Below, piece after piece: positions 6,269 to 52,748 of a stretch of DNA of 56,790 nucleotides (positions are counted from its first letter, which is position 1; each line of letters starts with the position of its first letter). The position numbers and the translations under genes are program-made. Source of the stretch: Burkholderiales bacterium (lineage in GTDB: Bacteria; Pseudomonadota; Gammaproteobacteria; Burkholderiales; SG8-39). Where the stretch lies: positions 1-56,790 of the forward strand of contig DASSLQ010000107.1 in assembly GCA_035689325.1 (NCBI GenBank). Direction: 5' to 3'. The notes beneath the pieces were generated by a model that searched no databases, was not told the origin of the DNA, and saw only the letters and a list, made by a program, of their open reading frames with translations.

Positions 6269-6282
6269 TTGACGTCGATCAA
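6269..6282. promoter_or_regulatory. Crp/Fnr-type box TTGACGTCGATCAA upstream of gltA
   Basis: Exact TTGA-N6-TCAA palindrome in the intergenic region. Centre is about 36 bp from the gltA ATG, a position more consistent with repression or a very short leader. Confidence 0.6.
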
Positions 6283-6311
6283 GACGCGCCCTTTCAAAGG
6301 AAAGAGACACC

Positions 6312-7622
6312 ATGGACACAAAATCAGTCAGGACCGCGGCCCTTAATTGCAACGGCACGTCGATCGAGTTTCCTCTGCTCGGCGGCAGCATCGGGCCGGA
6401 CGCGGTGGACATCCGCAGCCTCTACGGCAAGAGCGGCATGTTCACGTACGATCCGGGCTTCCTGTCGACAGCGAGCTGCAACTCGAAGATCACCTATATC
6501 GACGGCGATGCGGGCGTGCTGCTCTACCGGGGCTATCCGATCGAGGAGCTCGCGGCACAGTGCGATTTTCTGGAGACCTGCTACCTGCTGCTCAACGGCG
6601 AGCTGCCCACGCCGGCGCAGAAAACGCGCTTCGTCGGCGCGGTGCGGCGCCACACCATGGTGCACGAGCAGATGCAGTTCTTCATGCGCGGATTCCGGCG
6701 CGATGCGCATCCCATGGCCGTGCTGACGGGACTGGTGGGAGCGCTCGCCGCCTTCTATCACGACTCGCTCGACATCAATAACCCGCAGGACCGCGAGACC
6801 TCGGCGCTGCGCCTGATCGCCAAGATGCCGACGCTGGTGGCGATGTCGTACAAGTATTCCCTCGGACAGCCCTACGTCTACCCGAAGAACGACCTCTCGT
6901 ACACCGCGAACTTCATGCGCATGCTGTTCGCCACGCCGTGCGAGGAGTACAAGGTCAACGACACGCTGGTGCGGGCGATGGATCGGATCTTCATGCTGCA
7001 CGCCGACCACGAGCAGAACGCTTCCACATCCACCGTGCGGCTATGCGGTTCGTCGGGCACCAATCCGTTCGCGGCCATCGCCGCCGGGGTGGCGTGCCTG
7101 TGGGGACCCGCCCATGGCGGCGCCAACGAGGCCTGCCTCAACATGCTGCAGCGGCTGCTGGCGCAGGGCGGGGTGGCGAAGCTCGGCGAGTTCATCGCCA
7201 AGGTCAAGGACCCGAACTCGGGCGCGCGCCTGATGGGTTTCGGACACCGCGTGTACAAGAACTATGATCCGCGCGCGAAGCTCATGCGCGAGACCTGCTA
7301 TGAAGTGCTGGGCGAGCTCGGCCTGGCCGACGATCCGCTGTTCAAGCTGGCGATGGCGCTCGAGAAGGTGGCGCTCGAGGACGAGTACTTCGTGAGACGC
7401 AAGCTCTACCCGAACGTCGACTACTACTCCGGCATCGTGCAGAAAGCGCTCGGCATACCGGTGTCGATGTTCACCGGCGTCTTCGCGCTCGCCCGCACCG
7501 TGGGCTGGATCGCGCAGTGGCAGGAAATGATCACCGACCCCGAGTACAAGATCGGGCGGCCGCGCCAGCTCTACAGCGGCCCGTCGCGCCGGCCGGTGAC
7601 ACCGATCCACAAGCGCGGCTGA
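6312..7622 (+). CDS. gltA: Type II (hexameric-type) citrate synthase
   Basis: 436 aa. Collinear with E. coli GltA from the N-terminus ([37 protein letters not shown]; [14 protein letters not shown]). Confidence 0.9.
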
Positions 7623-7668
7623 GAGCCGTCCGCGCGGGCGCGCTGCCCGAGCGTCCTCCGAAAAAAGG

Positions 7669-14414: not shown

Positions 14415-14428
14415 TTGATTTACGTCAA
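14415..14428. promoter_or_regulatory. Crp/Fnr-type box TTGATTTACGTCAA upstream of the por operon
   Basis: Exact TTGA-N6-TCAA. Centre about 40 bp upstream of the porG ATG (14381). Overlaps the lutC stop codon. Confidence 0.6.
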
Positions 14429-17656: not shown

Positions 17657-17670
17657 ATGACCTAGATCAA
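17657..17670. promoter_or_regulatory. Near-consensus Crp/Fnr-type box ATGACCTAGATCAA upstream of hemerythrin-lutABC
   Basis: One mismatch to TTGA-N6-TCAA. Centre about 41 bp upstream of the ATG at 17622. Confidence 0.45.
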
Positions 17671-21015: not shown

Positions 21016-21029
21016 TTGACCTGCGTCAA
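21016..21029. promoter_or_regulatory. Crp/Fnr-type box TTGACCTGCGTCAA in the dctP / malic enzyme divergent region
   Basis: Exact palindrome; the 14-mer is identical to the box at 28350. Confidence 0.65.
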
Positions 21030-31945: not shown

Positions 31946-31959
31946 TTGACCGGCATCAA
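31946..31959. promoter_or_regulatory. Crp/Fnr-type box TTGACCGGCATCAA upstream of mtoA (module 1)
   Basis: Exact palindrome in the 193-bp gap between the module-2 porin stop and the module-1 mtoA start. Confidence 0.6.
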
Positions 31960-36179: not shown

Positions 36180-36193
36180 TTGACATGGATCAA
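36180..36193. promoter_or_regulatory. Crp/Fnr-type box TTGACATGGATCAA upstream of the CbcL-like gene
   Basis: Exact palindrome. Centre about 65 bp upstream of the ATG at 36252. Confidence 0.6.
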
Positions 36194-36251: not shown

Positions 36252-38729
36252 ATGAGGCTCCTTGCGTGCGCTGCGCTGCTCACGGCAGCCATGCCCTTGT
36301 GCACCTCCCTGCAAGACGCGCAGGCGCAGACCGGCGCCGACTCGGCGCTCGCGGAATCGAAGGGCTGCTTCAGCTGCCATGCGATCGACAAGCAGGTTGT
36401 CGGACCGGCGTTCCGCGATGTGGCGAACAAATACGGCGGCGACCAGCGCGCGGCAGCCAGGCTCGCCGACCAGCTGAAGAAAGGCACCGGCCACCCGATC
36501 AAGGTCGAAGGCACCGACGCCGAGGTCGAGGCGCTGGTGCGCTATGTGCTCGCGCAGGGCGGCGCGGCCGCGCCGCGAGCGCCCAAGGCACCTGCGAAAC
36601 CGGCTGCGGCCACCGCGCTGCTCGAAGCGAAGGGCTGCCTCGGCTGTCACGGCGTCGACAAGCCGGGGGTCGGCCCGGCATTCAAGGACGTGGCCGCGAA
36701 GTACAAGAACGAGAAGACCGCCGAGGCGACGCTGATCGCGAAGCTGCGCGAGGGAAAGGGCCATCCCGTCAAGGCCGAGGCGTCGCAAGCGGAATTGAAG
36801 ACGCTGGTGCAATTCGTGCTCGCACAGGCGGCTGCCGCCAAGCCTGCCGGCAAATCGCAGGCGGCCACGGCGGCGAGCCCGCCGCTCGACAACGCCGTGT
36901 GCCTCGGCTGCCACGGGCAGCCGGGCTTTTCGATCACCGGCGTCGACGGCGCGCCGCGTGCGCTGCACGTGACGAAGGAGCGCTTCGAGAGCAGCGTCCA
37001 CGGCAAGCGGCAATGCGTCGAATGCCATCGCAACATCACCGAGATACCGCACAAGCCCGGTACGCAGGTGCGGGTGAGCTGCATCACCTGCCACGATGAC
37101 CTGTGGAAGCAGGCGCAGCGTCAAGGCACCACGGGCGAGCACGCGCGTCTCGGCGTGGTGGTCGCGCAGATCGACCGTTACATGAAGTCGGTGCACGCGC
37201 GGCCGAGCCGCGAAGATCAGTCGCGCACCAACGCCACCTGCTACAACTGCCACGATGCGCACTACGTCTATCCGCTCGGCACGACCGAGCGCGCCGACTG
37301 GCGCCTGAGCATCCCGCAGGTCTGCGGCAAGTGTCATGCGGAGAAGCTCGACGCCTACGCCACCTCGGTGCATGGTACGGAAGTGCTGAAGCTCCGCAAC
37401 CCCGCCGCCGCCATCTGCTCCGACTGCCACACTACACACGACATCCAATCGCCCGAAGGGACTGCTACCAAGCTCGTCATCGTCAAGAACTGCGGCGGCT
37501 GCCACGTCGCGAGCTTCAAGTCCTATACCAGCACCTATCACGGCCAAGTCCATCTGCTCGGCTACACCTATACCGCGAAGTGCTTCGACTGCCACGGCAG
37601 CCACGGCATCAAGCGCGTGAGCGATCCTTCGTCCAGCGTGAACCTCGAAAACCGCCTCGCCACGTGCCGCAAGTGCCACGCCAATGCAACCGCCGGCTAC
37701 GTCAGCTTCGAGCCGCACGCGACGACGCACGACTTCCACCGCTTCCCCCAAGTGTGGCTGTCGGCCAAGTTCATGATCGGCCTGCTCGCCGGCACGTTCC
37801 TCTTCTTCTGGACCCATACGGCGCTTTGGTTCTACCGCGAGTACCACGAGCGCCAGCGCGGCGCAATGCGCACGCACGTGAGCACGGCCGAGCTGCCCGG
37901 CGTGGCGGCCGGCAAGCAGTACCAGCGCTTCGGTCCCTGGTGGCGCCTCGCGCATCTGCTCTTCGCGGTCAGCCTGATGGTCCTCACGCTCACCGGCATG
38001 ACCGTGCTCTATGCGGAATCGAGCTGGGCGCCGGTGGTCATCAAGCTGCTCGGCGGCACGCGCAGCGCAGCGATCATCCATCGCCTGGCGGCCGTGGTGT
38101 TCGCCAGCGTCTTCCTCGTCCACCTGGTGGTGGTGCTCAACCGGGTGCGCAAGTGGCGCACGCTCGAGCAGTGGTTCGGTCCGCGCTCGCTGATCCCGAG
38201 CTGGCAGGACATCAAAGACATCTTCTTCATGTTCCGCTGGTTCGTCGGCAAGGGGCCGCGCCCGTTCTTCGACCGCTGGACCTACTGGGAGAAATTCGAC
38301 TATTGGGCGCCCTTCTGGGGCGTGACGATCATCGGCGTAAGCGGGCTCATGATGTGGCTGCCCGCGCTCACCGCGTCGCTCTTGCCCGGGTGGGTGTTCA
38401 ACGTCGCGATCCTGGTGCACGGCGAGGAAGCGCTGCTCGCAGCGCTGTTCCTCTTCACGGTGCATTTCTTCAACAACCACTTCCGGCCGGACAAGTTCCC
38501 GCTCGACGTGGTGATGTTCACGGGCAGCATGCCGATCGAGGAGTTCCGCCGCGAGCATCGCCTGGAATACGAGCGGCTCGTGCGCACGGGGGAATTGCAG
38601 AAGCACTTGGTGGATGCGCCCTCGCTGCCGATGTCGCGCGGCTCGCGCATCCTCGGCTTCACGCTGATCGGCACCGGCCTCGTTCTCCTCCTGCTGGTGC
38701 TGGTCGGTTTCTTCGGGCACGCCGCGTAA
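36252..38729 (+). CDS. Fusion protein: 2 x MtoD-like monohaem c domains + nine-haem c domain + C-terminal FdnI/HydC-type cytochrome b membrane domain (CbcL-like)
   Basis: ATG at 36252 with signal peptide; 825 aa; 11 CXXCH motifs. Residues about 30-205 are two repeats collinear with the 94-aa cytochrome at 28410. Residues about 495-825 carry 4-5 TM helices with conserved His (WRLAHLLF, IIHRLAAVVFASVFLVH, ILVHGEE..FTVHFFNNH). Confidence 0.75.
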   Translation: MRLLACAALLTAAMPLCTSLQDAQAQTGADSALAESKGCFSCHAIDKQVVGPAFRDVANKYGGDQRAAARLADQLKKGTGHPIKVEGTDAEVEALVRYVLAQGGAAAPRAPKAPAKPAAATALLEAKGCLGCHGVDKPGVGPAFKDVAAKYKNEKTAEATLIAKLREGKGHPVKAEASQAELKTLVQFVLAQAAAAKPAGKSQAATAASPPLDNAVCLGCHGQPGFSITGVDGAPRALHVTKERFESSVHGKRQCVECHRNITEIPHKPGTQVRVSCITCHDDLWKQAQRQGTTGEHARLGVVVAQIDRYMKSVHARPSREDQSRTNATCYNCHDAHYVYPLGTTERADWRLSIPQVCGKCHAEKLDAYATSVHGTEVLKLRNPAAAICSDCHTTHDIQSPEGTATKLVIVKNCGGCHVASFKSYTSTYHGQVHLLGYTYTAKCFDCHGSHGIKRVSDPSSSVNLENRLATCRKCHANATAGYVSFEPHATTHDFHRFPQVWLSAKFMIGLLAGTFLFFWTHTALWFYREYHERQRGAMRTHVSTAELPGVAAGKQYQRFGPWWRLAHLLFAVSLMVLTLTGMTVLYAESSWAPVVIKLLGGTRSAAIIHRLAAVVFASVFLVHLVVVLNRVRKWRTLEQWFGPRSLIPSWQDIKDIFFMFRWFVGKGPRPFFDRWTYWEKFDYWAPFWGVTIIGVSGLMMWLPALTASLLPGWVFNVAILVHGEEALLAALFLFTVHFFNNHFRPDKFPLDVVMFTGSMPIEEFRREHRLEYERLVRTGELQKHLVDAPSLPMSRGSRILGFTLIGTGLVLLLLVLVGFFGHAA

Positions 38730-38738: not shown

Positions 38739-38752
38739 TTGACCTAAATCAA
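38739..38752. promoter_or_regulatory. Crp/Fnr-type box TTGACCTAAATCAA upstream of the tetrahaem c4-type gene
   Basis: Exact palindrome. Centre about 40 bp upstream of the ATG at 38785. Confidence 0.55.
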
Positions 38753-40812: not shown

Positions 40813-41946
40813 ATGAAAAGCCTGAAGCTGGGAATCGTCGTTTCGCTGGCGCTCGCCGCCTGCTCACCGGAGCAGCCGGCCGGCAAGGCGGATGCCGCGA
40901 AGCTCGCGCCGGGCAATGCGGCCGCCGGCAAGCCGATCGCGGAGAAGGAATGCAAAGGCTGCCACGGCCTCGACGGCAAAGGCGCGGCGCCGGGCATCCC
41001 GCATCTCGCCGCGCAGAGCGAGCGCTATCTTGTCTCGGCGCTCAAGGAATACAAGGACAACAACCGCACGCACGCCGCCCTCAGGGCCATCGCCGAGGGC
41101 CTGACGGATGCCGACACGCGCAACGTGGCCGCGTATTACGCGGGCCTGCCGCCGGTGCAGCTCGCATCGCAGACCCAGCCGAAGCAGATCACGCCCTACG
41201 AGCACGGCAAGGCGCTCGCGAGCGCCTGCGCGCAATGCCACGGCCCGGACGGCAATAGCAAGACCTCAGGCACGCCGAGCCTCGCCGGACAGCAGTTGCG
41301 CTACCTGGTCGTTGCCATGGACGAGTACCTGCACAGCGAGCGCAAGGCGGCTTCGATGCACGCCGTGGTGCCGCGCCTGGGCAAGCTCGACAAGGAAGAC
41401 CTGGCCCTCTATTTCGCTTCGCAGACCCCGGTGCAGCGCGCGGCCGCGCCTTTCGGCGATGCGGCGGCGGGCGAACCGCTCACCGCGGTGTGCGGCGGAT
41501 GCCATGGGGCGCAGGGCGTGAGCGCCGACAGCGCGACGCCCACGCTCGCCGGTCAGGACGCCGCCTACCTGGTCGAAGCGATCAAGGCCTACCGCACCAC
41601 GCGCAAGCGCGAAAATATGCGTCTATACGTCACCGGTTTGAAGGAGGCGGACATCCGCAACATCGCGGCGTTCTACACGACGCAGAAATCGCTCGCATCA
41701 GAAAAAGGGGACACCGTGGCTCAGCAGGTCGCCGACAAGTGCGAACGCTGCCACGGCAGTGGCGACAATCCGGCGCTGTCGGTGCCCAAGATCCGGGGCC
41801 AGGACCGGGACTACCTGATCATGGCGCTGCGCGCCTACCGCGACGATCGGCGCGGCAGCTCGACGATGCACAAGATGAGCATCCCCTACGGCGACTCGAT
41901 CATCGAAAGCCTGGCGTCGTACTACGCGAGCCAACCGCCCAGATAG
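40813..41946 (+). CDS. Tetrahaem c4-type cytochrome lipoprotein
   Basis: ATG at 40813. MKSLKLGIVVSLALAAC lipobox. CKGCH, CAQCH, CGGCH, CERCH with c4-type repeats. Confidence 0.8.
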   Translation: MKSLKLGIVVSLALAACSPEQPAGKADAAKLAPGNAAAGKPIAEKECKGCHGLDGKGAAPGIPHLAAQSERYLVSALKEYKDNNRTHAALRAIAEGLTDADTRNVAAYYAGLPPVQLASQTQPKQITPYEHGKALASACAQCHGPDGNSKTSGTPSLAGQQLRYLVVAMDEYLHSERKAASMHAVVPRLGKLDKEDLALYFASQTPVQRAAAPFGDAAAGEPLTAVCGGCHGAQGVSADSATPTLAGQDAAYLVEAIKAYRTTRKRENMRLYVTGLKEADIRNIAAFYTTQKSLASEKGDTVAQQVADKCERCHGSGDNPALSVPKIRGQDRDYLIMALRAYRDDRRGSSTMHKMSIPYGDSIIESLASYYASQPPR

Positions 41947-41959
41947 GGCCGCGTCATCA

Positions 41960-42271
41960 TCACTTGCCCTTGAGCGACGCGTAATACGCCGCTATGTCGG
42001 CCATGTCCTGATCGCTCAGCTTGCTCGCAAATGTCTTCATGACGGCGTTCGTGCGCTTGCCCGACTTGTAGTCGTTCATCGCTTGCACGAGCTCGCCCTC
42101 CGGCTTTCCGGCGAGGGGCGGGTTCGGCTTGCGCCCTTCGCCGTTTGCGCCATGGCAGCCGGCGCAGCTGCTCGTTTTGGCCTTGCCGGCGCCGGCATTG
42201 CCGCCCGCCTGGACGGCACTCATCGCTCCGAGCAAGGCGAAGATTGCAGCGGCGAGAATTGCACGTTTCAT
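41960..42271 (-). CDS. Monohaem class I cytochrome c
   Basis: ATG at 42271; 103 aa with signal peptide. CAGCHGANGEG...PLAGK...YKSGKR..VM...DIAAYYA. Confidence 0.8.
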   Translation of the reverse strand: MKRAILAAAIFALLGAMSAVQAGGNAGAGKAKTSSCAGCHGANGEGRKPNPPLAGKPEGELVQAMNDYKSGKRTNAVMKTFASKLSDQDMADIAAYYASLKGK

Positions 42272-42303
42272 TGTCTGCTCCTGTGATGACCCAATGGACG
42301 ATT

Positions 42304-43518: not shown

Positions 43519-44351
43519 CAGCTCACATCCTTGTCGATGCCGACATAGAACCCGTTGGGCGCGTTGCCCGACTCGGGCTTCAGCACATGCGTGCGGTTCT
43601 CGCGCAGGAAGCGGCTGATCGGGCTTTGCTTGTCGGCGCGGTCGCCGAACACGCGCGCGCCGGTCGGGCAGACTTCGACGCAGGCCGGCTGCAATCCTTT
43701 GGTGATGCGGTGGTAGCACCACGTGCACTTGTCGGTGACGTGCTTGCGCTCATCGAAGAAGCGCGCGCCGTAAGGGCAGGCCTGCACGCAGTACTGGCAG
43801 CCGATGCAGTACTTGTGGTCGATGACGACCACGCCATCCTTGGTCTTGTACGTGGCGCCGGTGGGGCACACCTGCACGCAAGCCGGATTGGTGCACTGGT
43901 TGCAGAGCTTGGGTACGAAAAAGGCCTTTTCTACCTGCTCGTCCGGATAACGATTGGCGAATCGATATTCGCCTTCGGCTAAGGAAGCGGCGATGTTCAC
44001 CGGATCGTGCTGGCTGTCGATGCGCGGCCGGTCTTCGCCTTGCAGATAGACGTAGCGCTCGACCCAGGTGCGGAAATGATGTGCATCCAGCGGCACGCCG
44101 TTCTCGGTCTTGCACGCCTCGACACAGCGCAGGCAGCCGATGCACTTGGTCGCGTCGACGCCGAATGCCCAATGGTGCTGCGTCCAGTCGTAGCCCGGAA
44201 TGGGCGAGTCGCTGCTCGCCGCTTCGGCCTCGCGCAGCGCCGCGTTGCTCGCGAGCGCGGCGCCCGCGCCCGCGGCCGCGCCGCCCAGCAACCGTAGAAA
44301 GCGCCGCCGCGCGGCCCTTGCCTGATCGGTGCTGCGGGTCAGCCCGTTCAT
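43518..44351 (-). CDS. Tat-exported 4x[Fe-S] ferredoxin subunit (NrfC/PsrB/HybA-like)
   Basis: ATG at 44351. Twin-arginine motif ARRRFLRLLGG. Cys clusters CIGCLRCVEAC, CNQCTNPACVQVCP, CIGCQYCVQACP, CTWCYHR...CVEVCP. Confidence 0.85.
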   Translation of the reverse strand: MNGLTRSTDQARAARRRFLRLLGGAAAGAGAALASNAALREAEAASSDSPIPGYDWTQHHWAFGVDATKCIGCLRCVEACKTENGVPLDAHHFRTWVERYVYLQGEDRPRIDSQHDPVNIAASLAEGEYRFANRYPDEQVEKAFFVPKLCNQCTNPACVQVCPTGATYKTKDGVVVIDHKYCIGCQYCVQACPYGARFFDERKHVTDKCTWCYHRITKGLQPACVEVCPTGARVFGDRADKQSPISRFLRENRTHVLKPESGNAPNGFYVGIDKDVS

Positions 44352-44361
44352 GTGCGTGGTC

Positions 44362-45375
44362 TCAATTGGCGCTCGCGTAATGCTCCGCCAAGGCATCCAT
44401 CTCGGCGTCGCTCAGTCCGCCGGCCACGCCGGCCATCAACTCATTCTTGCGAGCACCTGTCTTGTAGGCCTTCAGCGCGCTCACGAGGTATTGCTTCGAC
44501 TGTCCGGCGAGATTGGGCCACGCTGGGTTGGCGCTGATGCCCGCGGCGCCGTGGCACGGCACGCACGCGGCGACGTTCGCCTGGCTTGCGGCGCGTTTGG
44601 CTTCGCTGCGCGGCCGCGCCAAGCGAGCGTAGTAACCGGCGATCTTGCTGATGTCGCCATCGCCCAGCGCTTTGGCGGTTGCGGACATCATGGCGTTGTC
44701 GCGAGCGCCCGTCTTATAGGCCTTGAGCGCGTCGCTGAGGTAAGTGCTTTGCTGCCCGGCGAGATTCGGCCATGCTGGATTGGCGCTTATCCCGTTGGCG
44801 CCGTGACAACCCGAGCAGCTTGCGACCTTGCCCGCCGTCGCGTCAGTGGATCGGCCCGCGGGCGCCGCGGCGGTGCGTATCATTTTCGGCGAATGGGGGT
44901 TGTGGCAGCTCGTGCATTGCTGCGTGCCGGCATGCGTGGCAAGCACGATCTGTGGCTGCGCGGCCGGCCGGCCCGCCGTCTTTTCGTGGCACAGGGAACA
45001 GAGCTTGCGCGAATCGGCGGGAACGGCAAGCTTGCCGCTCGCCGGATGGTCGACACCGGTGCTCACGTGCTGAAAGAGCCCGCCTGCATCGCGTCCGCCC
45101 GCCGCCCCGTGGCAGACCTCGCACTGCACGGCCTTGCCCCGCTCGGTAGCGTGATGCACGCCTTTCGACCACTCCGCAAAGCGCTCGGCATGGCAATCGC
45201 GGCAATACTCCGAGCCCGTGAACTTCGGCTTGTCGGCGGCGATCTCCGCCACCGACGCGCCTCGATAGTGCCCGTAGAGGTAGAACGAATCGGCGGTAAA
45301 GAAGCGCTTCGCCGCATACGCCGCTACTCCGGCGGCAACCATGAGTGCAACGAGCCGAGTGATGTGTCTTGGCAC
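44362..45375 (-). CDS. Membrane-anchored hexahaem cytochrome c (tetrahaem domain + two c4-type domains)
   Basis: 337 aa with N-terminal TM helix. CRDCH, CEVCH, CSLCH, CTSCH, then a duplicated GISANPAWPNLAGQ..YL..ALKAYKTGAR domain with CSGCH and CVPCH. Confidence 0.8.
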   Translation of the reverse strand: MPRHITRLVALMVAAGVAAYAAKRFFTADSFYLYGHYRGASVAEIAADKPKFTGSEYCRDCHAERFAEWSKGVHHATERGKAVQCEVCHGAAGGRDAGGLFQHVSTGVDHPASGKLAVPADSRKLCSLCHEKTAGRPAAQPQIVLATHAGTQQCTSCHNPHSPKMIRTAAAPAGRSTDATAGKVASCSGCHGANGISANPAWPNLAGQQSTYLSDALKAYKTGARDNAMMSATAKALGDGDISKIAGYYARLARPRSEAKRAASQANVAACVPCHGAAGISANPAWPNLAGQSKQYLVSALKAYKTGARKNELMAGVAGGLSDAEMDALAEHYASAN

Positions 45376-45428
45376 GGGCCGCGACTGTCCCTCCGATTCG
45401 CACCTTGCACCACGCGACGCTGGACGTG

Positions 45429-45442
45429 TTGATGCACATCAA
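45429..45442. promoter_or_regulatory. Consensus FNR-type box TTGATGCACATCAA upstream of the hexahaem-NrfCD operon
   Basis: Perfect TTGAT-N4-ATCAA. Centre about 60 bp upstream of the ATG at 45375. Confidence 0.7.
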
Positions 45443-45580
45443 CCGGCTAACGGAGGGCCTGCCGAGCAAAGGACGAAATCGTCCGCGTCGCAGCCGAGCA
45501 CGTACTGGCCGCCCCGCGCGCGGCAGCTTCTTCAGCGTTGTCTTAGCGGCGCATTGGGCACCGGGAAAGGCATACGGCAG

Positions 45581-45594
45581 TTGACTCAGATCAA
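45581..45594. promoter_or_regulatory. Crp/Fnr-type box TTGACTCAGATCAA
   Basis: Exact palindrome. Centre is exactly 40 bp from the next box (45621). Confidence 0.6.
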
Positions 45595-45620
45595 ACGGCC
45601 TGTGATGCTCGCTATTAGAT

Positions 45621-45634
45621 TTGACGCGCGTCAA
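45621..45634. promoter_or_regulatory. Crp/Fnr-type box TTGACGCGCGTCAA upstream of regulator 1
   Basis: Exact palindrome. Centre about 41 bp upstream of the ATG at 45669. Confidence 0.6.
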
Positions 45635-45668
45635 CAACGGCCGCCATGCGGGGGCGATACTGCAAGAT

Positions 45669-46400
45669 ATGAGTAATGGCGTAAACAACGGCGTGCAGCG
45701 CGACCGTCCGCTCATCGAGGGCGTAGTGGCGAACCTGCCGCTCTTCTGGAGCGTTTCGCCGGCACAGCGCCAGGTCCTTGCCGCCGGCTGCTGGAGCCTG
45801 AGCGCAGCGCGCGGCGCTTCGCTGCTGCAGGCGGGCAGCCGTCCGCCGGGTCTGTTCGCCGTCGCGTATGGCGCGGTGAAGCTCGCGCTTCGCAACGGCG
45901 GCGCCGCCGAGCGCCTGCTGCGCGTGGTTGCTGCGCGGCAGACATTCGCCGAGGCGAGCGCGCTGCTCGGCCGCCCGGCGCCCTATGACGCCGTGGCGAT
46001 CACCGACGCGAAGCTGGTCGTCATCCCGAGCGCGGCGCTGCTCGGGCTGCTCGAGCGCGAAACCGGGTTCGCCAAGTCGCTCATTAACACCCTCGCCGAA
46101 GGTCACCTGCAGCTTTGCGCCGAGATCGGAGCGGCGACGCTGCAGCGCGGCGCGGCGCGCCTCGCGGGCTATCTCGACGCCCTGGTGGGCAATGGTGCAG
46201 GCGACGCAGAGTGCACCGTGGAGCTGCCGTTGAGCAAGACGCTGGTCGCGGCGCGGCTCGGCATGAAGAAGGAGACGCTCTCGCGGCTACTGCGTCAGTT
46301 GGGCGAGGCCGGCGTCATAGCGGTTTCCCGCCGCAGCGTCCTCATCCGCGACCGCGGGCGCCTGCAAGCCGCGGCGAGCGGACACCGCAGCGCCGATTGA
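45669..46400 (+). CDS. Crp/Fnr-family transcription regulator (no FNR-type N-terminal Cys cluster)
   Basis: ATG at 45669. cNMP-like beta-roll followed by an HTH with the E--SR recognition motif (KKETLSRLLRQL). Confidence 0.8.
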   Translation: MSNGVNNGVQRDRPLIEGVVANLPLFWSVSPAQRQVLAAGCWSLSAARGASLLQAGSRPPGLFAVAYGAVKLALRNGGAAERLLRVVAARQTFAEASALLGRPAPYDAVAITDAKLVVIPSAALLGLLERETGFAKSLINTLAEGHLQLCAEIGAATLQRGAARLAGYLDALVGNGAGDAECTVELPLSKTLVAARLGMKKETLSRLLRQLGEAGVIAVSRRSVLIRDRGRLQAAASGHRSAD

Positions 46401-46410
46401 CCCATATCAA
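46397..46410. promoter_or_regulatory. Crp/Fnr-type box TTGACCCATATCAA upstream of regulator 2
   Basis: Exact palindrome. Overlaps the stop codon of regulator 1; centre about 36 bp before the ATG at 46440. Confidence 0.55.
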
Positions 46411-46439
46411 ATGCTGCTCCTTGCGCCCGGCTAGCCTCG

Positions 46440-47120
46440 ATGCCAATGCGGGCGATTGCAGGCCTTTGGGGCATGTCGCAGGCACAGGCGGCTGCGCTGG
46501 CGGAGCATTGCCGGCCGCTGAGCGCGCCGCGCGGCGAGGTGATCGCGCAGCGCGGCACACTGCTTCCCGGCGTGCTCGTGCTGTGCGCTGGGTCGGTGAA
46601 GCTTTGCCTGCGCAGCGCGGAGGGCGACGAGCGCGTGCTGCGCATTGTCGCCGCCGGCGAGAGCTTCGGCGAGCCGACGGCGCTCCTGCGCAAGCCCTGT
46701 CTCTACGACGCCATCGCCCTCACCGACGCGAAGCTCTTGAGCATCGCCACCGCTGGCATCTTTGCGCTGCTCTCGCGCGACCGGCGCTTCGCGCGCTCAG
46801 TGGTGGTGGCGCTCGCCGAGCGCTCCTACACCGTGCTCACAGAGCTCGAGGCCGCGACTACGCAGCGCGGCGCGCAGCGGCTCGCCGGCTACCTCGAGTC
46901 CCTGCCGCGCCGTCAGGGCGCGCGCGGCGCGGCGAAAGTGCTGCTGCCGGTGAGCAAGACCGTCGTCGCAGCGCTCCTCGGCATGAAGAAGGAGACGCTC
47001 TCGCGCCTGCTGCGGCAGCTCACCGCTGACGGCGTGATCGGCATGACGCGCCGCGAGATCGACATCCTCGACCCCGCCCGGCTGAGCGCCGCCGCGGCGC
47101 ACGAACGCGCTAGGGCTTGA
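46440..47120 (+). CDS. Crp/Fnr-family transcription regulator, paralogue of the preceding gene
   Basis: 226 aa. Same architecture and an identical KKETLSRLLRQL recognition helix segment. Confidence 0.8.
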   Translation: MPMRAIAGLWGMSQAQAAALAEHCRPLSAPRGEVIAQRGTLLPGVLVLCAGSVKLCLRSAEGDERVLRIVAAGESFGEPTALLRKPCLYDAIALTDAKLLSIATAGIFALLSRDRRFARSVVVALAERSYTVLTELEAATTQRGAQRLAGYLESLPRRQGARGAAKVLLPVSKTVVAALLGMKKETLSRLLRQLTADGVIGMTRREIDILDPARLSAAAAHERARA

Positions 47121-47265
47121 GCGGCTTGTCGTCGTCGGCGACGATGTCGTGCGCCGGCCGCTCGAGGTCGTCGAACTGCCCGGACTCGAGCGCGCGCCAG
47201 AAGAGCCAGCCGCTCAGGAATACGAGTACGACGGAAAGCGGGACGAGGAGGTAGAGGCTTTCCAT
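47110..47265 (-). CDS. ccoS: cbb3 oxidase maturation protein CcoS/FixS
   Basis: 51-aa ORF, below the track cutoff: MESLYLLVPLSVVLVFLSGWLFWRALESGQFDDLERPAHDIVADDDKPLKP. This is the classic CcoS pattern, and it lies downstream of ccoI. Confidence 0.75.
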   Translation of the reverse strand: MESLYLLVPLSVVLVFLSGWLFWRALESGQFDDLERPAHDIVADDDKPLKP

Positions 47266-49544
47266 GGCGATTGCACGCCGAGCGTGCGCGAAGCGTTCAG
47301 CATAACGATGATCGAGCTCGCCGCCATGCCGAGCGCGGCTTCCCAGGGGCCGATGAAGGCGGCGGCGGCGAGCGCGAGCGCCGCGCCGTTATAGGCGAGC
47401 GCCCATCCGAAGTTCCCGCGCACGAGCTGCATCGCGCGGCGCGAGCCCACCAGCGCATCGATGATGGCGCCGAGCCGGTTGCCGGGCAGCACGACATCGG
47501 CCGCAAGCTGCGCGGCATCGGCGCCGGCGCCCATCGCGAACGACACGTCCGCGCGGGCGAGCACCGGCGTGTCGTTGAGCCCGTCGCCGACCATGGCGAC
47601 CACGCGCCCCGCGCGCTGCAGGCGCGCGACGTAGTCGCACTTGTCCTGCGGCGCCATGTCACCCGCATAGCGCTCGATCCAGAGCAGGCGCGCAATCGCC
47701 GCCCCGGCCTCGAGCCGGTCGCCGGTCGCGAGATGCACGCCGAGCCGCCGCGCGCGCAGCGCGGCGATGAACGCCGCGGCTTCCGGCCGCAGCGCATCGC
47801 GCAGCTCGAACGCCGCGATCCACTCCTGCTCGGCGGCGAGGAACACGCGGCAGTCATCCAGGCTTTGATGGCAGGGCGCCGGCGGACCGGCCAGCTCGCG
47901 GCAGAAGCGCTCGGTGCCGATGCGCACGCGCCGCTCGCCCACCGTGGCTTCGATTCCTTCGCCGGCGACGTGGCGCTGCGATTGCACCGCGAGCGTCGGC
48001 CCATCGCCGTAGGCGCGCGACAACGGATGCCGGCTCGCCGCTTCGAGCGAGCGCGCGAGCGTGATCGCCGCCCGCTCGCTTTGCGTGCCGAGGAGCACCG
48101 TGCGAGCGAGCGTCATGCGCCCGCTCGTCAGCGTGCCGGTCTTGTCGAGCACCACGTCGGTGACGCGCGCGAGCGTCTCGTACGCAGCGCTGCGCGTGAC
48201 CAGCGCGCCGCGCGCAAGCAGCCACGCGTTCGCGCGCGTGAGCACGATCGGCGCGGCGAGGCCGAGCGCGCAGGGACACGTCGCAATCAATACCGCTACC
48301 GCGACCCACACGTCGCCCCAGTAGAGCGCCGCGCCCAGCGCCGTGGCGAGCACCAGCACGGTGAGCTGGCGCGCGATGCGATCGGCTGCCGCGACCAGCG
48401 GGGGTCTTTGCGATGCGGCGCGCTCGGCAAGCCGCGCGATCGCCGCTGCCTGGGTGTCGGCGCCCGCGCGTGTCACGCGCATCGTGAGCGGCTGCTCGTA
48501 GTTCACCGACCCGGCGAGCAGCGCGTCGCCGGGATGCTTCGGCACCGCTCGTGCTTCGCCGGTAAGGAGCGATTCGTCCGCACTGGAGATGCCCTGCTCC
48601 ACGATGCCATCTGCGGGCACGCGCTCGCCGGGGGCGATGGTGACGCGCTCGCCGGGCGCGAGCGCCGCGGACGGCGCCCAGGCAAGGAGCCGATCGAGCT
48701 GCGCGGTGGCGCGCCGCGTCGCCACGAGCTGGGCATAGCGCGCGGCGAGCAGGAGGAAAGCGAGCATGCTGATGGAATCGAAGTACACCTCTGCCGTGCC
48801 GGTGAAGGTGGCCCAGCTGCTCGCCACGAATGCGCCGGCGAGGCCGAGCGCGATCGGCGTGTCGAGACCGATGCGGCGGCTACGCAGGTCGCCCAGCGCG
48901 CCGGCGAAGAACGGCTGGCAGGAGAAAAGCACGACCGGCAGGGTGATGAGCAGGCTCGCCCAGCGCATGAGCTGCGCTGCTTCGCCGCTCAGCTCGCCTC
49001 GGCTGATGTAGGCCGGGAAGGCGTACATCATGACTTGCATTGCGCCGAAGCCGGCGACGAACAGCCGCCACAGCGCGACGCGCCGCTCGCGCCGGTAGAG
49101 CGCTTCCTGGCGTTGCGGGTCGTACGGCGTGGCGTCGTAGCCGACCGCCCGGATCGACGCGATCAGCTCGGCGAGCCTGGTTTGCGCCGGATCCCAGGCG
49201 AGCTGCGCGCGCCGTGTCGTGTAGTTCACGTCGGCGCGGATGATGCCGGGCGCCCGGCGCAGCACCTGCTCGATCAGCCACAGGCAGGCGGCGCAGCGCA
49301 CCCCCTCCAGGATGAGCGCAGCCTCGCCGCCGTCACCGGCAACGGCTACCGGAGCATGCTCGCGCGGCGTCGGCGCCGGCTGCGTGCGGGTCTCGTAGTA
49401 CGCGCCGAAGCCACCCTCGACGATGGTGCGCGCGACCGCCTCGCAGCCCGCGCAGCAGACCTCGCGCTCGACGCCAAGCAGAAGAAAAGCGCGCCTGCCG
49501 GCGGGAGGAACCGGCAGGCCGCAGTGGAAGCAGGGAGCGCTCAG
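47214..49544 (-). CDS. ccoI: Copper-translocating P1B-type ATPase CcoI/FixI
   Basis: The track ORF begins at the GTG inside the LEGVRCAAC metal-binding motif. The same frame stays open upstream and encodes CFHCGLPVP...VCCAGCEAVARTIVEGGFGAYYETR, typical of FixI N-termini. No ATG/GTG/TTG is available there, so the start is tentatively placed at the CTG at 49544. Confidence 0.7.
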   Translation of the reverse strand: MSAPCFHCGLPVPPAGRRAFLLLGVEREVCCAGCEAVARTIVEGGFGAYYETRTQPAPTPREHAPVAVAGDGGEAALILEGVRCAACLWLIEQVLRRAPGIIRADVNYTTRRAQLAWDPAQTRLAELIASIRAVGYDATPYDPQRQEALYRRERRVALWRLFVAGFGAMQVMMYAFPAYISRGELSGEAAQLMRWASLLITLPVVLFSCQPFFAGALGDLRSRRIGLDTPIALGLAGAFVASSWATFTGTAEVYFDSISMLAFLLLAARYAQLVATRRATAQLDRLLAWAPSAALAPGERVTIAPGERVPADGIVEQGISSADESLLTGEARAVPKHPGDALLAGSVNYEQPLTMRVTRAGADTQAAAIARLAERAASQRPPLVAAADRIARQLTVLVLATALGAALYWGDVWVAVAVLIATCPCALGLAAPIVLTRANAWLLARGALVTRSAAYETLARVTDVVLDKTGTLTSGRMTLARTVLLGTQSERAAITLARSLEAASRHPLSRAYGDGPTLAVQSQRHVAGEGIEATVGERRVRIGTERFCRELAGPPAPCHQSLDDCRVFLAAEQEWIAAFELRDALRPEAAAFIAALRARRLGVHLATGDRLEAGAAIARLLWIERYAGDMAPQDKCDYVARLQRAGRVVAMVGDGLNDTPVLARADVSFAMGAGADAAQLAADVVLPGNRLGAIIDALVGSRRAMQLVRGNFGWALAYNGAALALAAAAFIGPWEAALGMAASSIIVMLNASRTLGVQSPWKASTSSSRFPSYSYS

Positions 49545-49963
49545 GAGACCGTGATGCGCCGCGAGGCGCTGCCTGCTTTCTTCGGCAGGACGAGCTTGAG
49601 AACGCCGTCCCGGTATTCGGCGATGACCGCCTTGTCGTCGACCTCGACGGGCAGCGTGAAGCTGCGCGCGACCATGCCATAGCTGCGTTCGCTATAGAGG
49701 GTCGTCTCGTCCGCCTTCTCGTCCTTCGCCGCCTTCACCTCCGCGCGCAGCGAGACGGTATCACCGTCGATCTCGACGCTGATGTCGTCCTTCTTGACGC
49801 CGGGAATCTCTGCGAAGACGGTGAAATCCCTGTCCGTTTCCTTCACGTCGATCTTCATCGCGAGCTCAGTCTCGCCGGGATAGGCGAGCGGCGGCAGGAA
49901 CAGGACTTTGCCGAAATCCTTGAAGAAATCATCGAACGGTGCACGACGAGCGATGGTGTACAT
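49541..49963 (-). CDS. Hsp20/alpha-crystallin small heat-shock protein
   Basis: 140 aa. Motifs MKIDVKETDRDFTVFAEIPGVKKDDISVEIDGDTVSL and AEYRDGVLKLVLPK. Confidence 0.85.
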   Translation of the reverse strand: MYTIARRAPFDDFFKDFGKVLFLPPLAYPGETELAMKIDVKETDRDFTVFAEIPGVKKDDISVEIDGDTVSLRAEVKAAKDEKADETTLYSERSYGMVARSFTLPVEVDDKAVIAEYRDGVLKLVLPKKAGSASRRITVS

Positions 49964-50025
49964 AAAGCCTCCAAACGACTGTTTCCGTGGGCCACCCTAT
50001 CGTAGGCCTTGCGCCCGCGGCGGTA

Positions 50026-50039
50026 TTGATCTCCGTCAA
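50026..50039. promoter_or_regulatory. Crp/Fnr-type box TTGATCTCCGTCAA in the hsp20 / pat-like divergent region
   Basis: Exact palindrome, about 69 bp from the hsp20 ATG and about 40 bp from the ATG at 50072. Confidence 0.55.
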
Positions 50040-50071
50040 AGCCGTTCGCGGTACATTTGCCAGCCTCGCGC

Positions 50072-52738
50072 ATGCTCCGCCATTACCTCCAGCCGCTGCT
50101 TGCGCCGCGCAGCGTGGCGCTCGTCGGCGCGACCGAGCGCGAAGGCGCGCTCGGCAACATCGTGCATCGCAATCTGGCGGCGGCCGGCCTGCGCGGCCCG
50201 CTCTGGACGGTAAATCCAAAGCACTCGACGCTCTTCGGCGCAAAGTGCTATGCGCGCCTCGGCGAGCTGCCGCAGCCGCCCGAGCTCGCCGTGATCGTCA
50301 CGCCGGCGCGCACCGTGTCCGCAATCGTGCGCGAGGCCGGCCAGGCCGGCGTCAAGGCCGCGGTCGTGCTCACCAGCGGCTTCGCCGAAGTGGGCGACCA
50401 AGGCAAGCGCCTGCAGGCGGACCTGCTGGCCGCGGCGCGTGGCGCGCGCGTGCGCCTGCTCGGGCCGAATTGCCTCGGCCTCATGCGCACGGACGTCGGC
50501 CTCAACGCCACCTTTGCGCGCAGCTACGCGCATGCCGGCCCGCTCGCGCTCGTCTCGCAGTCCGGCGCGATGTGCACCGCGATGCTCGATTGGGCGTACG
50601 CGGCGGGCGTGGGATTTACCAGCGTGGTGTCGCTCGGCGGCGCGGCCGACATCGATTTCGGCGAGGTGCTCGACTTCCTCGTCGCCGACGAGCCGACGCG
50701 CGCGATCCTCATGTACGTTGAAGGCATCCACGACGCCCGCCGCTTCGTCTCGGCCTTGCGCGCCGCGGCGCGCGTCAAGCCGGTGATCGCGCTGAAAGTA
50801 GGCCGCTTTGCGAGCGGCTCGCGGGCGGCGACGAGCCACACGGGCGCCCTCGTCGGCAGCGACGCGGTGTTCGATGCGGCGCTACGGCGCAGCGGCACCG
50901 TGCGCGTCAAGACCTATACGCAGCTTTTTGCCGCGGCGCGCGTCCTCGCCAGCGGCGTGCTGCCGGCAGGCGAGCGCCTCGCCATCCTCACGAACGGCGG
51001 CGGACCGGGCGTGGTGGCGGCCGACAGCGCGGCCGAAAACGGCGTGCCGCTCGCCCAGCTCGCCGCCGATACGCTCGCGCGGCTCGATGCCGCGCTGCCG
51101 CCGCAGTGGTCGCACGGCAATCCGATCGACATCATCGGCGACGCGCCAGCCGAGCGCTTCGCCGTGGCCACGGCCGCCGCGCTCGCGGATCCGGGCGTGG
51201 ACGCGCTGCTCGCGCTTTATTCACCGGTCGCCGTGACCTCGCCGCAGGAGGCGGCGCGCGCCGTGGTGCAGGCGGCACGCGGCACGCGCAAGCCGGTGCT
51301 CGCCGGCTGGCTCGGCGACATCAATCCGAACGAAACGCGCCGCTACCTCGACAGCGAGCGCATTGCGAACTTCTATACGCCGGAGAACGCGGTAGAGGCC
51401 TTCTCGTTCGTGTGCGCCTACCGGCGCAACCAGCAGCAGCTCATGCAGGCGCCGCCGGCGCTGCACGGCGAGGAAACGCGCCCCGCGACGGCGAAGGTGA
51501 GCGCCATTCGCGACGCGGCGATCGCAGAACGCCGCAATCTGCTGAACGAGCGCGAGGCGAATGCGCTGCTCGGCGCCTTCGGCCTGCCCGTGCCACGGAG
51601 CGCGCTGGTCACGTCGAAAGAAGCCGCCATCGAGGCGGCGCGCGGCATCGGCTTCCCGGCCGTGCTCAAGATCCAGTCGCGCGACCTCGCGCACAAGAGC
51701 GACGTCGGCGGCGTGCGGCTCAACCTGCAGAACGCCGACATGGTGGCCTCCGCCTACGACGACATGATGCGCCACGTGCGCGCGCTGCGGCCCGATGCGC
51801 GCGTCGAAGGCGCGATCGTGCAGCCGATGCTGCGCTATGAGCATGCGCGCGAAGTGCTCGTGGGGGTGGCGAGCGACGCGGTGTTCGGACCGGTGATCTC
51901 GTTCGGCGCCGGCGGTGTCGCCGTGGAAGCAGTGCGCGATACCGCGCTCGCGCTGCCGCCGCTCAACGCGGCGCTCGCGCTCGAGCTGATGCAGCGCACT
52001 CGCGTGCATCGCTTGCTGGGTGCCTATCGCAACGTACCGGCGGTCGACATGGAGGCGCTCTGCGCGCTGCTGAACGGCGTCTCGCGCATGGTGTGCCTGC
52101 TGCCCTGGCTCGCCGAGATGGACTTGAATCCGGTGCTCGCCCACCCGGGCGGCGCGGTCATTGCCGACGCGCGCATCGTCATCGATCCCGCGCGCACCAA
52201 GCCGTTGCCGCGCTACGGCCACATGGCGATACACCCTTACCCGGTGGAGCTCGAGCAGGAGCTCGCGCTCGCCGACGGCACGCGCGTTCGCATTCGCCCG
52301 ATACGGCCGGAGGATACCGATCTCGAGCAGCGGTTTTTCGATTCGCTCTCCGAGCGCTCGCGCTACCAGCGCTTCATGCAGCACATGCAGCACCTGCCGC
52401 CGTACCTCCTCGCGCGCTTTACGCAACTCGACTACGACCGCGAGCTTGCGCTGGTGGCCCTCCACGCGGACAGTTTCATCGCGGTAGGACGTTACGCGCC
52501 GAACCCCGACGGCGAGACGGCGGAGTTCGCCCTCGTGGTGGGCGATGCCTGGCAAGGCAAGGGGCTCGGGCGCGCGCTGCTCGAGCGCCTGTGCGAGGCG
52601 GCACGCGCCGCCGGCTATCGAGCGCTCTACGGCGAGATCCTGAACGCCAACCACGACATGCTCGACCTCGCCCGGCGCCTCGGCTTCATCGAAGAACAGC
52701 GTGCCGGCGGCGAGGTGACCGTCGCGCGCCGCCTTTGA
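50072..52738 (+). CDS. Bifunctional ADP-forming acyl-CoA synthetase-like / GNAT acetyltransferase (Pat/YfiQ-type protein lysine acetyltransferase)
   Basis: ATG at 50072; 888 aa. N-terminal CoA-binding and ATP-grasp regions (SVALVGATEREG, LLGPNCLGLM). C-terminal GNAT (IRPIRPEDTDLEQRFFDSLSERSRYQRF...GKGLGRALLERL). Confidence 0.8.
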   Translation: MLRHYLQPLLAPRSVALVGATEREGALGNIVHRNLAAAGLRGPLWTVNPKHSTLFGAKCYARLGELPQPPELAVIVTPARTVSAIVREAGQAGVKAAVVLTSGFAEVGDQGKRLQADLLAAARGARVRLLGPNCLGLMRTDVGLNATFARSYAHAGPLALVSQSGAMCTAMLDWAYAAGVGFTSVVSLGGAADIDFGEVLDFLVADEPTRAILMYVEGIHDARRFVSALRAAARVKPVIALKVGRFASGSRAATSHTGALVGSDAVFDAALRRSGTVRVKTYTQLFAAARVLASGVLPAGERLAILTNGGGPGVVAADSAAENGVPLAQLAADTLARLDAALPPQWSHGNPIDIIGDAPAERFAVATAAALADPGVDALLALYSPVAVTSPQEAARAVVQAARGTRKPVLAGWLGDINPNETRRYLDSERIANFYTPENAVEAFSFVCAYRRNQQQLMQAPPALHGEETRPATAKVSAIRDAAIAERRNLLNEREANALLGAFGLPVPRSALVTSKEAAIEAARGIGFPAVLKIQSRDLAHKSDVGGVRLNLQNADMVASAYDDMMRHVRALRPDARVEGAIVQPMLRYEHAREVLVGVASDAVFGPVISFGAGGVAVEAVRDTALALPPLNAALALELMQRTRVHRLLGAYRNVPAVDMEALCALLNGVSRMVCLLPWLAEMDLNPVLAHPGGAVIADARIVIDPARTKPLPRYGHMAIHPYPVELEQELALADGTRVRIRPIRPEDTDLEQRFFDSLSERSRYQRFMQHMQHLPPYLLARFTQLDYDRELALVALHADSFIAVGRYAPNPDGETAEFALVVGDAWQGKGLGRALLERLCEAARAAGYRALYGEILNANHDMLDLARRLGFIEEQRAGGEVTVARRL

Positions 52739-52748
52739 CTTGCGTCAA
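52735..52748. promoter_or_regulatory. Crp/Fnr-type box TTGACTTGCGTCAA upstream of the usp gene
   Basis: Exact palindrome overlapping the preceding stop codon. Centre about 61 bp upstream of the ATG at 52803. Confidence 0.6.

Follow-up and report, generated by a model that had tools for sequence, protein, structure and literature searches.

A putative Crp/Fnr-type regulon with predicted class II and leaderless promoters across a 47-kb island of respiratory and fermentative genes in a soil Burkholderiales bacterium

Contig DASSLQ010000107.1 of NCBI GenBank assembly GCA_035689325.1, a stretch of 56,790 nucleotides from a Burkholderiales bacterium that was analysed whole and is called the window here, carries a 47-kb island of respiratory and fermentative genes in which the palindrome TTGANNNNNNTCAA (TTGA-N6-TCAA) recurs ahead of nearly all operons. 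Because the sequence is rich in G+C and holds many spurious open reading frames (ORFs), the gene map was built from third-position G+C content, Pfam and NCBIfam profile scans, six-frame inspection of the gaps and corrected start codons; three genes, lutA, lutC and a small one for a cytochrome c, came to light in the gaps. The island encodes OFOR, POR, citrate synthase, a flavodoxin, FeoB, a hemerythrin with LutABC for the utilisation of lactate, DctPQM for the uptake of C4-dicarboxylates, and malic enzyme. It also encodes RquA for rhodoquinone synthesis followed by FrdABCD (fumarate reductase), two decahaem cytochrome/porin pairs, several c-type cytochromes, a fusion of cytochromes c and b, a hexahaem-NrfC-NrfD set, two tandem Crp/Fnr regulators (regulators 1 and 2), a P-type ATPase, an Hsp20, a Pat-like acyl-CoA synthetase/GNAT protein and a Usp. 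An earlier reading of the letters of this DNA, made without database searches (the original prediction), had assigned gene labels that the Pfam and NCBIfam scans bear out: RquA scores 293 bits against the NF038261 equivalog cut-off of 175, and the two MtoA-like proteins score 230 and 275 bits against the cut-off of 192 for TIGR03508 (DmsE-family decahaem). A gene for an MtrB/PioB porin (PF11854) adjoins each MtoA-like gene, so that both pairs have the make-up of MtoAB/PioAB/MtrAB modules.

A pattern search of the whole window returned 14 exact matches to the palindrome, at the very starts that the original prediction had listed. Dinucleotide-preserving shuffles of the window gave an expectation of 0.21 matches with a maximum of two, and 0.006 are expected in shuffled intergenic DNA alone; the earlier estimate of 0.1 was of the right order, and the G+C content, put at 70% by eye, was computed as 67.3%. 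Non-coding DNA makes up 2,456 nt (4.3%) of the window after start-codon correction. A comparison of motif density between intergenic and coding DNA, proposed with the original prediction and run here within the window, placed the centres of all 14 boxes in this small fraction, an outcome with a probability of about 8e-20 under random placement. The earlier statement that no exact match lies inside a gene body holds for the centres but not for every base, as three boxes share 4 nt with a coding sequence, the TGA within TTGA acting as stop codon for the gene upstream (lutC, regulator 1 and pat). The bases shared by stop codon and operator are 14425-14427 (minus strand, lutC), 46398-46400 (regulator 1) and 52736-52738 (pat). 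Among the 18 transcription units inferred between 6.2 and 53 kb, 17 carry an exact or one-mismatch box, feoB being the exception, and the claim of a box in front of almost every operon is upheld. A 14-bp TTGA-N6-TCAA palindrome that lies in promoter regions far above chance is what defines an operator of the Fnr/FixK type, and the boxes qualify as such.

Within the 14 exact boxes, position 5 of the half-site is a pyrimidine in 28 of 28 cases and the core is therefore TTGAY-N4-RTCAA; position 7 is never A, and outside the arms of 4-5 nt the centre and flanks vary. The T/A, C/G and hybrid half-site classes described originally were found again, as was the identity of the 14-mers at 21016 and 28350. 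Allowing one mismatch to TTGAY-N4-RTCAA added three sites, at 17657, 31906 and 4317; the first two, which the original prediction had already named as near-matches, are the sole intergenic ones, and the third lies within an ORF. A search for degenerate boxes with up to two mismatches in further intergenic regions gave none that was convincing. A rule for the orientation of hybrid boxes (TTGAC distal, ATCAA proximal) holds in 6/6 cases in the window and was rejected, as it fails in the related loci L009 and L010.

The distance between box and promoter is as regular as the box itself. When 17 box-to-gene pairs were oriented and hexamers of the form nAnnnT (A at position 2, T at position 6) were counted at each offset, such a hexamer was found exactly at +22 after the 14-mer in 11 of the 17 pairs (background 2.45% per position; binomial P = 2e-14), and the count at every other offset was 0-4. 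The hexamers at +22 are GATACT (twice), TACGAT, TACGCT, TAGCCT, TAGGGT, CACAAT, CACTAT, CATCAT, CAAGGT and CAGCCT. A -10 hexamer that begins 22 nt past the box puts the box centre at -41.5, which is the textbook position for class II activation by Fnr and Crp. From this spacing we infer that most of the boxes sit at class II positions, from which they would activate transcription at the predicted starts.

Two groups of distances between box centre and start codon, noticed originally, are real after start correction and span 36.5-42.5 nt and 53.5-83.5 nt. The short group consists of gltA (36.5 nt), c4 and pat (39.5 nt), porG (40.5 nt), regulator 1 and hemerythrin (41.5 nt) and regulator 2 (42.5 nt). 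Leaving gltA aside, the ATG of the six short-distance genes (por, hemerythrin, c4, regulators 1 and 2, and pat) follows the box at an offset of 33-36 nt and lies 6-9 nt past the -10 hexamer, where transcription should begin, an arrangement that is kept in relatives; for regulator 1 an independent gene call (P0001, 243 aa) has the same start codon. A Shine-Dalgarno core is missing from all six of these genes and present in eight of ten long-distance genes (Fisher P = 0.007). Given the fixed offset from the -10, the lack of a Shine-Dalgarno core and the retention of the offset in orthologous loci, the short class is read as leaderless class II, and the six messenger RNAs (mRNAs) are, on these sequence features, best read as leaderless and activated, not repressed. 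The original prediction had seen in the short distances a hint of repression or very short leaders; repression is not the best explanation for them, save possibly at gltA. Leaderless transcripts, enriched for regulators, have been mapped in Burkholderia cenocepacia (PMC4603805).

The same arrangement is found in relatives, for which six metagenomic loci with 52-81% protein identity, including L001 and L008-L012, were compared. A contig profile search gave one true relative (L001), and six distant Crp loci (Lachnospiraceae, Mesonia) were set aside. The homologues of regulator 1 derive from uncultured soil and freshwater Burkholderiales. In all six loci two boxes 39-40 bp apart precede the regulator 1 homologue and the proximal box is followed by nAnnnT at +22 (GACACT in two loci, CACACT, CATCAT, AACAAT and GACGAT), and in five of the six the ATG stands at an offset of 34-35. 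The offsets of the regulator 2 and pat boxes are kept in L001 and L008, both of which also have the mtoA2/cytochrome box, and that of the hemerythrin box is kept in L008 (box 2223); in L010 a one-mismatch hemerythrin box (4359-4372) was read from the flank and would have the same 41.5-nt geometry. Around the homologues there recur genes for cytochromes c, NapC/NirT, MtoA/MtrB, RquA, hemerythrin, DctPQM, Frd, Usp and Pat. The rquA gene lies within a boxed operon in the window, L010 and L011, and in L008 it follows mtoA-mtoB immediately, behind box 6650. As a separate matter, the overlap between the regulator 1 stop codon and the following box is retained in two related loci (L001 5151 and L008 10522).

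Both regulators of the island match PF00027 (cNMP-binding) and PF13545 (HTH_Crp_2) above cut-off, which places them in the Crp/Fnr superfamily. They are paralogues with 50% identity and have the same recognition helix, KETLSRLLRQL. The KETLSRL part of this helix shows no variation among 23 family members and lines up with ETFSRIM in DNR from Pseudomonas aeruginosa, the nearest solved relative of regulator 1 (E = 1.7e-22). The E-x2-SR signature reads TTGA in Fnr-type proteins, where it is formed by E209, S212 and R213 in Escherichia coli FNR. Both regulators thus have the helix of Fnr/FixK/Dnr DNA specificity, and they are likely, judging by this helix, to be binders of the boxes.

Contigs of a soil metagenome are near-identical to the window, and 98% of the sampled words of its region 44000-50000 occur in run X1. 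Soil metatranscriptome contigs that are 100% identical to the window cover the hexahaem gene, regulator 1, the regulator 1/2 junction, c4, other cytochromes, the ATPase and hsp20, the last being the most consistently detected gene in these metatranscriptomes. The deepest hsp20 contig (49608-49979) ends 12 nt before the predicted transcription start at 49991 and never crosses the box; its end, which is that of an assembled contig and not a mapped 5' end, agrees with the model and is weakly supportive. No metatranscriptome contig resolves the 5' end of por; nearly all contigs there come from related organisms (95-99% identity or higher, over short stretches), and two X23 contigs are exact.

On this evidence, a probability of roughly 0.8 is given to the reading that the boxes are operators of a dimeric Crp/Fnr-family activator of Fnr/FixK/Dnr specificity, which acts from class II positions, serves a leaderless subset of genes and switches the island jointly. 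The original description as a Crp/Fnr-type regulon is supported by the near-complete boxing of the transcription units, the E-x2-SR helix of both regulators and the box positions kept in relatives. It is suggested that the E-x2-SR helix of the activator would read TTGAY-N4-RTCAA in a box that, at almost all sites, lies about 41.5 bp upstream of the transcription start in place of a -35 element, and that the bound dimer would recruit RNA polymerase to a weak -10. The 14 exact and two near-match sites would wire about 17 transcription units of the island into a single switch, which would most likely be turned on by oxygen limitation. Periplasmic and quinol-linked cytochromes are among the genes so wired. 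At six promoters (por, hemerythrin, c4, regulators 1 and 2, and pat) transcription is predicted to start at the ATG or a few bases from it and to yield leaderless mRNAs. The tandem regulators, each behind a box of its own, would probably bind these same boxes, in positive autoregulation or as a second tier of a cascade. Given that neither has known ligands for sensing oxygen or nitric oxide (NO), the primary signal may be sensed by a protein encoded outside the window.

Several observations weigh against this reading. No nAnnnT stands exactly at +22 in six of the 17 pairs: the dctP hexamer begins at +23, the mtoA1 proximal box has TTCAAT, and the fit is poor at gltA, hemerythrin and the genes of the dihaem and fusion cytochromes. 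The placement at -41.5 depends on a -10-like hexamer together with an assumed distance of 7 nt from the -10 to the start. The best -10 of the dihaem cytochrome gene puts the box near -50.5, and at gltA a Shine-Dalgarno sequence with the box centre just 36.5 nt away is incompatible with class II activation. The RNA data consist of sparse assembled contigs with neither strand nor 5'-end resolution. As regards the regulators, the [4Fe-4S] cluster of Fnr is held by three N-terminal cysteines and one central cysteine, and the 23 members of the regulator family have no conserved four-cysteine set. In DNR the proposed haem ligands are His139 and His187, and the corresponding columns are Q and R in regulator 1. 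The best named family is FtrB (PRK09392), which the regulators match with 89.5 and 80.4 bits against a cut-off of 211, and no named-family cut-off is reached. In the comparison with Fnr (PRK11161), regulator 2 scores 30 bits against a cut-off of 228, and for regulator 1 the Fnr model is not among the families listed at E 1e-5 or better, nor does either regulator have an FNR structure among its PDB matches at E 1e-3 or better. Scores for FixK are about 33 bits against a cut-off of 300 and those for FnrL are also below cut-off. By sequence, the local regulators are not Fnr proper and do not qualify as FtrB or FixK, two hypoxia-cascade regulators that have no sensory cofactor, and the lack of a cysteine cluster combined with scores below the Fnr cut-off makes a master sensor encoded elsewhere possible.

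This raises the possibility that the boxes are read solely by a canonical [4Fe-4S] Fnr or Anr encoded elsewhere and that the local regulators are mere targets with another or a subset specificity, much as in the Anr-to-Dnr and FixK-to-FtrB cascades. Such an arrangement, which we regard as a possible but distinctly less probable explanation, would account for local regulators that have no conserved cysteine cluster and stay below the Fnr, FixK and FnrL cut-offs. It would also account for the boxes that precede both regulator genes, as the Anr box precedes dnr in P. aeruginosa. Furthermore, fumarate reductase, usp, hsp20 and por are typical cargo of an Fnr/Anr regulon (PMC3721108). However, this explanation is not preferred for two reasons: first, KETLSRL is invariant and of Fnr type, so the local proteins are expected to read the same core. 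Second, in six loci the homologues of regulator 1 show tight synteny with boxed operons for cytochromes, MtoAB and RquA, which suggests a dedicated role. Moreover, the window is the entire contig and offers no Fnr gene for comparison.

Repression from the short-distance boxes, whose centres lie 36-42 nt before the start codon and which would then overlap the core promoter or the point where the transcript begins, is unlikely. Fnr does repress some E. coli promoters, such as ndh, and gltA fits such a role, with a Shine-Dalgarno sequence, no -10 at +22 and a box half, TTGACG, that resembles a -35. Given its good Shine-Dalgarno sequence and the lack of a -10 at +22, the gltA box would lie within or after the core promoter, where repression or a roadblock is possible. 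For the other six short-distance genes, however, nAnnnT is at +22 in five, as at the long-distance promoters, with hemerythrin having only TACAAA at +23, and none has the Shine-Dalgarno core that a leadered, repressed gene would require. Their ATG offset (33-37 nt) is also kept in orthologous loci though the intervening sequence diverges. Class II activation of leaderless genes is hence the reading retained for these six.

Somewhat less likely again is a regulon of the Dnr/NnrR type that answers nitric oxide or nitrogen oxides and not oxygen limitation. This would agree with DNR being the closest solved structure to regulator 1 and with the label 'dissimilatory nitrate respiration regulator' that some sources give to the homologues. 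Those labels are automatic annotations, however, and neither the window nor the six related loci have nir, nor, nos or nar genes; neither of the two histidine columns of DNR is conserved, and no histidine at all is invariant in the family, unlike what DNR or NnrR membership would call for. Finally, an origin of the palindromes by chance or as a non-regulatory repeat (terminator hairpins, a REP-like or mobile repeat family), for which only the palindromic form speaks, is effectively refuted by the shuffles, the intergenic placement, the fixed distances to the -10 and start codons, the conservation of orthologous positions and the restriction of conservation to the arms.

The preferred reading, class II activation by a Crp/Fnr-family protein, can be taken one step further, although only as a tentative proposal that we regard as less likely than not. 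Within the Crp/Fnr family, regulator 1 and its homologues from uncultured Burkholderiales may make up a separate branch, as yet without a name, that is devoid of the iron-sulphur and haem ligands of Fnr and DNR, owes its expression to a conserved class II promoter that is leaderless and has tandem boxes, and acts as a dedicated switch coupling porin-cytochrome extracellular electron transfer to rhodoquinone-dependent fumarate respiration, possibly in response to a signal other than O2 or NO.

The closest precedent for the island is the lxa locus of B. cenocepacia J2315, in which 17 intergenic points among 50 genes carry an inverted repeat with arms of 4 bp and a spacer of 6 bp, a motif its authors liken to the Anr/Fnr sequence TGA-N6-TCA; the locus is induced by low oxygen and holds genes for a universal stress protein (usp), alpha-crystallin, a cation ATPase and an Anr-related regulator (PMC3721108). 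The island is likewise a Burkholderiales locus of about 50 genes with inverted repeats around a 6-bp spacer at many intergenic points, and has inside it usp, an alpha-crystallin/Hsp20 gene, a cation P-type ATPase gene and a Crp-family regulator gene. It differs in that its cargo is respiratory and fermentative (RquA-Frd, MtoA/MtrB, POR, a TRAP dicarboxylate transporter, and NrfCD-type and fusion cytochromes), whereas lxa is described as a persistence locus of an obligate aerobe; moreover, low-oxygen induction has been measured for lxa and the island is known from sequence.

The predicted promoters resemble E. coli class II Fnr/Crp promoters in having a TTGAT-N4-ATCAA-like palindrome in place of the -35, a -10 from +22 and a regulator with an E-x2-SR helix. 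They differ in that TTGAC half-sites are as frequent as TTGAT and in that the local regulators have no N-terminal cysteine cluster. About one third of the island promoters are predicted to be leaderless, unlike the E. coli Fnr regulon, of which leaderless mRNAs are, to our knowledge, not a described feature. Paralogous Crp/Fnr regulators with near-identical boxes, and a box before the gene of the downstream regulator, are also found in the Anr-to-Dnr cascade of P. aeruginosa and the FixK-to-FtrB cascade of Caulobacter. The ties are those already given, DNR being the closest solved structure and FtrB the top named family, yet with 89 bits against 211. In contrast to both cascades, the DNR histidine columns are not kept, there are no denitrification genes and no master sensor is visible in the window.

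FNR control has been predicted for O2-independent ubiquinone genes across Pseudomonadota, with sites before ubiT and ubiU, in the accessible part of a survey that also gives rquA as mainly found in Betaproteobacteria (PMC11707229). As with ubiTUV, anaerobic quinone biosynthesis genes in the island stand behind predicted Fnr boxes at activation-type positions; unlike the accessible part of that survey (PMC11707229), in which Fnr sites are given for ubiT and ubiU and none for rquA, the rquA gene of the island is boxed. The searched literature held no description of rquA regulation and no link between MtoA and Fnr. In summary, the regulon is of a known type, and what is unusual is its cargo and the many predicted leaderless genes.

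The boxes provide a testable wiring diagram for the way in which uncultured soil Burkholderiales would switch to anaerobic energy metabolism. They would place MtoA/MtrB-type modules and rhodoquinone synthesis under one Fnr-type switch with fumarate reductase and POR, and since the switch is shared with these two enzymes, it is argued that the "Mto" modules work under oxygen limitation. This bears on, without settling, whether such modules export electrons or oxidize iron. Should the predicted leaderless class II promoters be confirmed, their cluster would offer a clean natural system in a proteobacterium in which activator-dependent transcription is coupled to leaderless translation. The spacing of box and -10 also serves as a ruler that corrects the start codons of mtoA1, both regulators, pat, usp, rquA and the fusion and dihaem cytochromes. 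Table 1 lists the boxes with their genes.

Table 1. Boxes, control regions and regulator genes of the island (window coordinates; a point marks features with no single strand).
Feature	Position	Strand	Details
gltA box TTGACGTCGATCAA	6269-6282	+	ATG 6312; centre-to-ATG 36.5 nt; Shine-Dalgarno present; no -10 at +22; atypical
porGABD (pyruvate:ferredoxin oxidoreductase) box	14415-14428	-	-10 GATACT at +22; ATG 14381, offset 34; predicted leaderless
hemerythrin-lutABC one-mismatch box, oriented TTGATCTAGGTCAT	17657-17670	-	Centre 41.5 nt from ATG 17622
Shared box, divergent dctPQM / malic enzyme	21016-21029	.	ATG 20962 (60.5 nt) / ATG 21076 (53.5 nt)
rquA-frdABCD box	28350-28363	-	-10 CACAAT at +22; TTG start 28294; Shine-Dalgarno GGAGGAG
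mtoA1-mtoB1-cytochrome c tandem boxes, 40 bp apart	31906-31959	-	Proximal one-mismatch 31906-31919; distal exact 31946-31959
Box, divergent mtoA2-mtoB2 / dihaem cytochrome c	35453-35466	.	ATG 35376, -10 CACTAT at +22 / ATG 35538
Fusion cytochrome box	36180-36193	+	ATG 36252, 65.5 nt from centre; weak -10
Tetrahaem c4-like cytochrome operon box	38739-38752	+	-10 TAGGGT at +22; ATG 38785, offset 33; predicted leaderless
hexahaem-NrfC-NrfD-cytochrome c operon box	45429-45442	-	GTG start 45375, 60.5 nt from centre; -10 CAAGGT at +22
Regulator 1 control region	45552-45634	.	CATTGGGC; distal box 45581; proximal box 45621 (40 bp apart)
Regulator 1, 243 aa	45669-46400	+	Crp/Fnr family; helix KETLSRLLRQL
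Regulator 2 box	46397-46410	+	Overlaps regulator 1 stop; -10 TAGCCT at +22; ATG 46446, offset 36; predicted leaderless
Regulator 2, 224 aa	46446-47120	+	Paralogue of regulator 1
Shared box, divergent hsp20 / pat-like acyl-CoA synthetase/GNAT	50026-50039	.	ATG 49963 / ATG 50072
usp box	52735-52748	+	Overlaps pat stop; -10 TACGCT at +22; ATG 52803; Shine-Dalgarno GAGGGAG

In the control region of regulator 1, the proximal box is followed by the -10 GATACT and by the ATG at 45669 (offset 35), from which a leaderless mRNA is predicted. The sequence CATTGGGC (reverse strand GCCCAATG) at 45552-45559 lies upstream of the distal box at a distance of 22 nt and does not vary among the window, L001 and L008. 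Its core, GCCCAA, also stands at +22 from a box in L009, L010 and L012, and in L011 it does so at box 2377, which is not the regulator box. The reverse-strand CCCAAT is probably, from its position, the -10 of a divergent cytochrome-operon promoter and, because it stands at a divergent -10 position, the tandem boxes would represent two back-to-back class II promoters. The hexahaem operon of the window would then probably have two box-dependent promoters (45429 and 45581).

Among the other boxes, that at 21016 has -10-like hexamers on either side, TAGGCT and CATCAT, with the dctP hexamer at +23. The mtoA1 proximal box is followed by TTCAAT at +22. Given that the tandem-box geometry puts the transcription start of this operon near 31871, the start codon of mtoA1 is taken as ATG 31832, which opens a signal peptide (MQGLLL...) and is preceded by GGAGGAG, and not as the longest-ORF ATG at 31880. 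At the shared box 50026, hsp20 has the -10 TACGAT and the Shine-Dalgarno sequence GGAGG, and the pat-like gene has its ATG at offset 33 and is predicted to be leaderless. Between the pat box and the predicted -10, TACATTTG at 50052-50059 stays the same across the window, L001 and L008, with variable bases around it; by its sequence it could be a second -10 (TACATT) or the site of another protein. The best -10 of the dihaem cytochrome gene is TATGAT in the window and TACAAT in L001 and L008, 31-37 nt after the box, which would lie near -50.5, a position associated with Fnr repression at E. coli ndh.

One RNA contig (46070-46441) runs from the end of regulator 1 across the regulator 2 box to the start of regulator 2, which suggests some read-through from regulator 1 into regulator 2 besides the predicted regulator 2 promoter, with DNA carry-over as a possible source. 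In several soil metatranscriptomes the hsp20 RNA contigs (49485-49979) stop 17-56 nt beyond the stop codon, and hsp20 appears for this reason to be monocistronic. The P-type ATPase gene downstream of hsp20 has no box of its own, and its start is uncertain, with the frame open to 49691.

The small cytochrome c gene found by gap inspection lies downstream of nrfD at 41960-42271 (minus strand) and encodes a monohaem protein of about 103 aa with a signal peptide and CAGCH; metatranscriptome contigs with 100% identity cover it (41893-42272). The fusion cytochrome (36252-38729, 825 aa), which has no NCBIfam match, joins two monohaem c-type domains, a multihaem region and a cytochrome b561-like membrane domain, and may serve as a quinol dehydrogenase feeding the porin-cytochrome modules. 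Two candidate boxes were rejected: that at 9887 for feoB overlaps the putative start codon, and that at 23014 is simply the start of the BON gene. The one-mismatch site within an ORF, CTGACCGGCATCAA at 4317-4330, matches box 31946 at 13 of 14 positions and lies 36 nt inside ORF 4281-6251, which is situated between OFOR and gltA, has no Pfam or NCBIfam match and encodes 656 aa with a C-terminal CxxCxxC.

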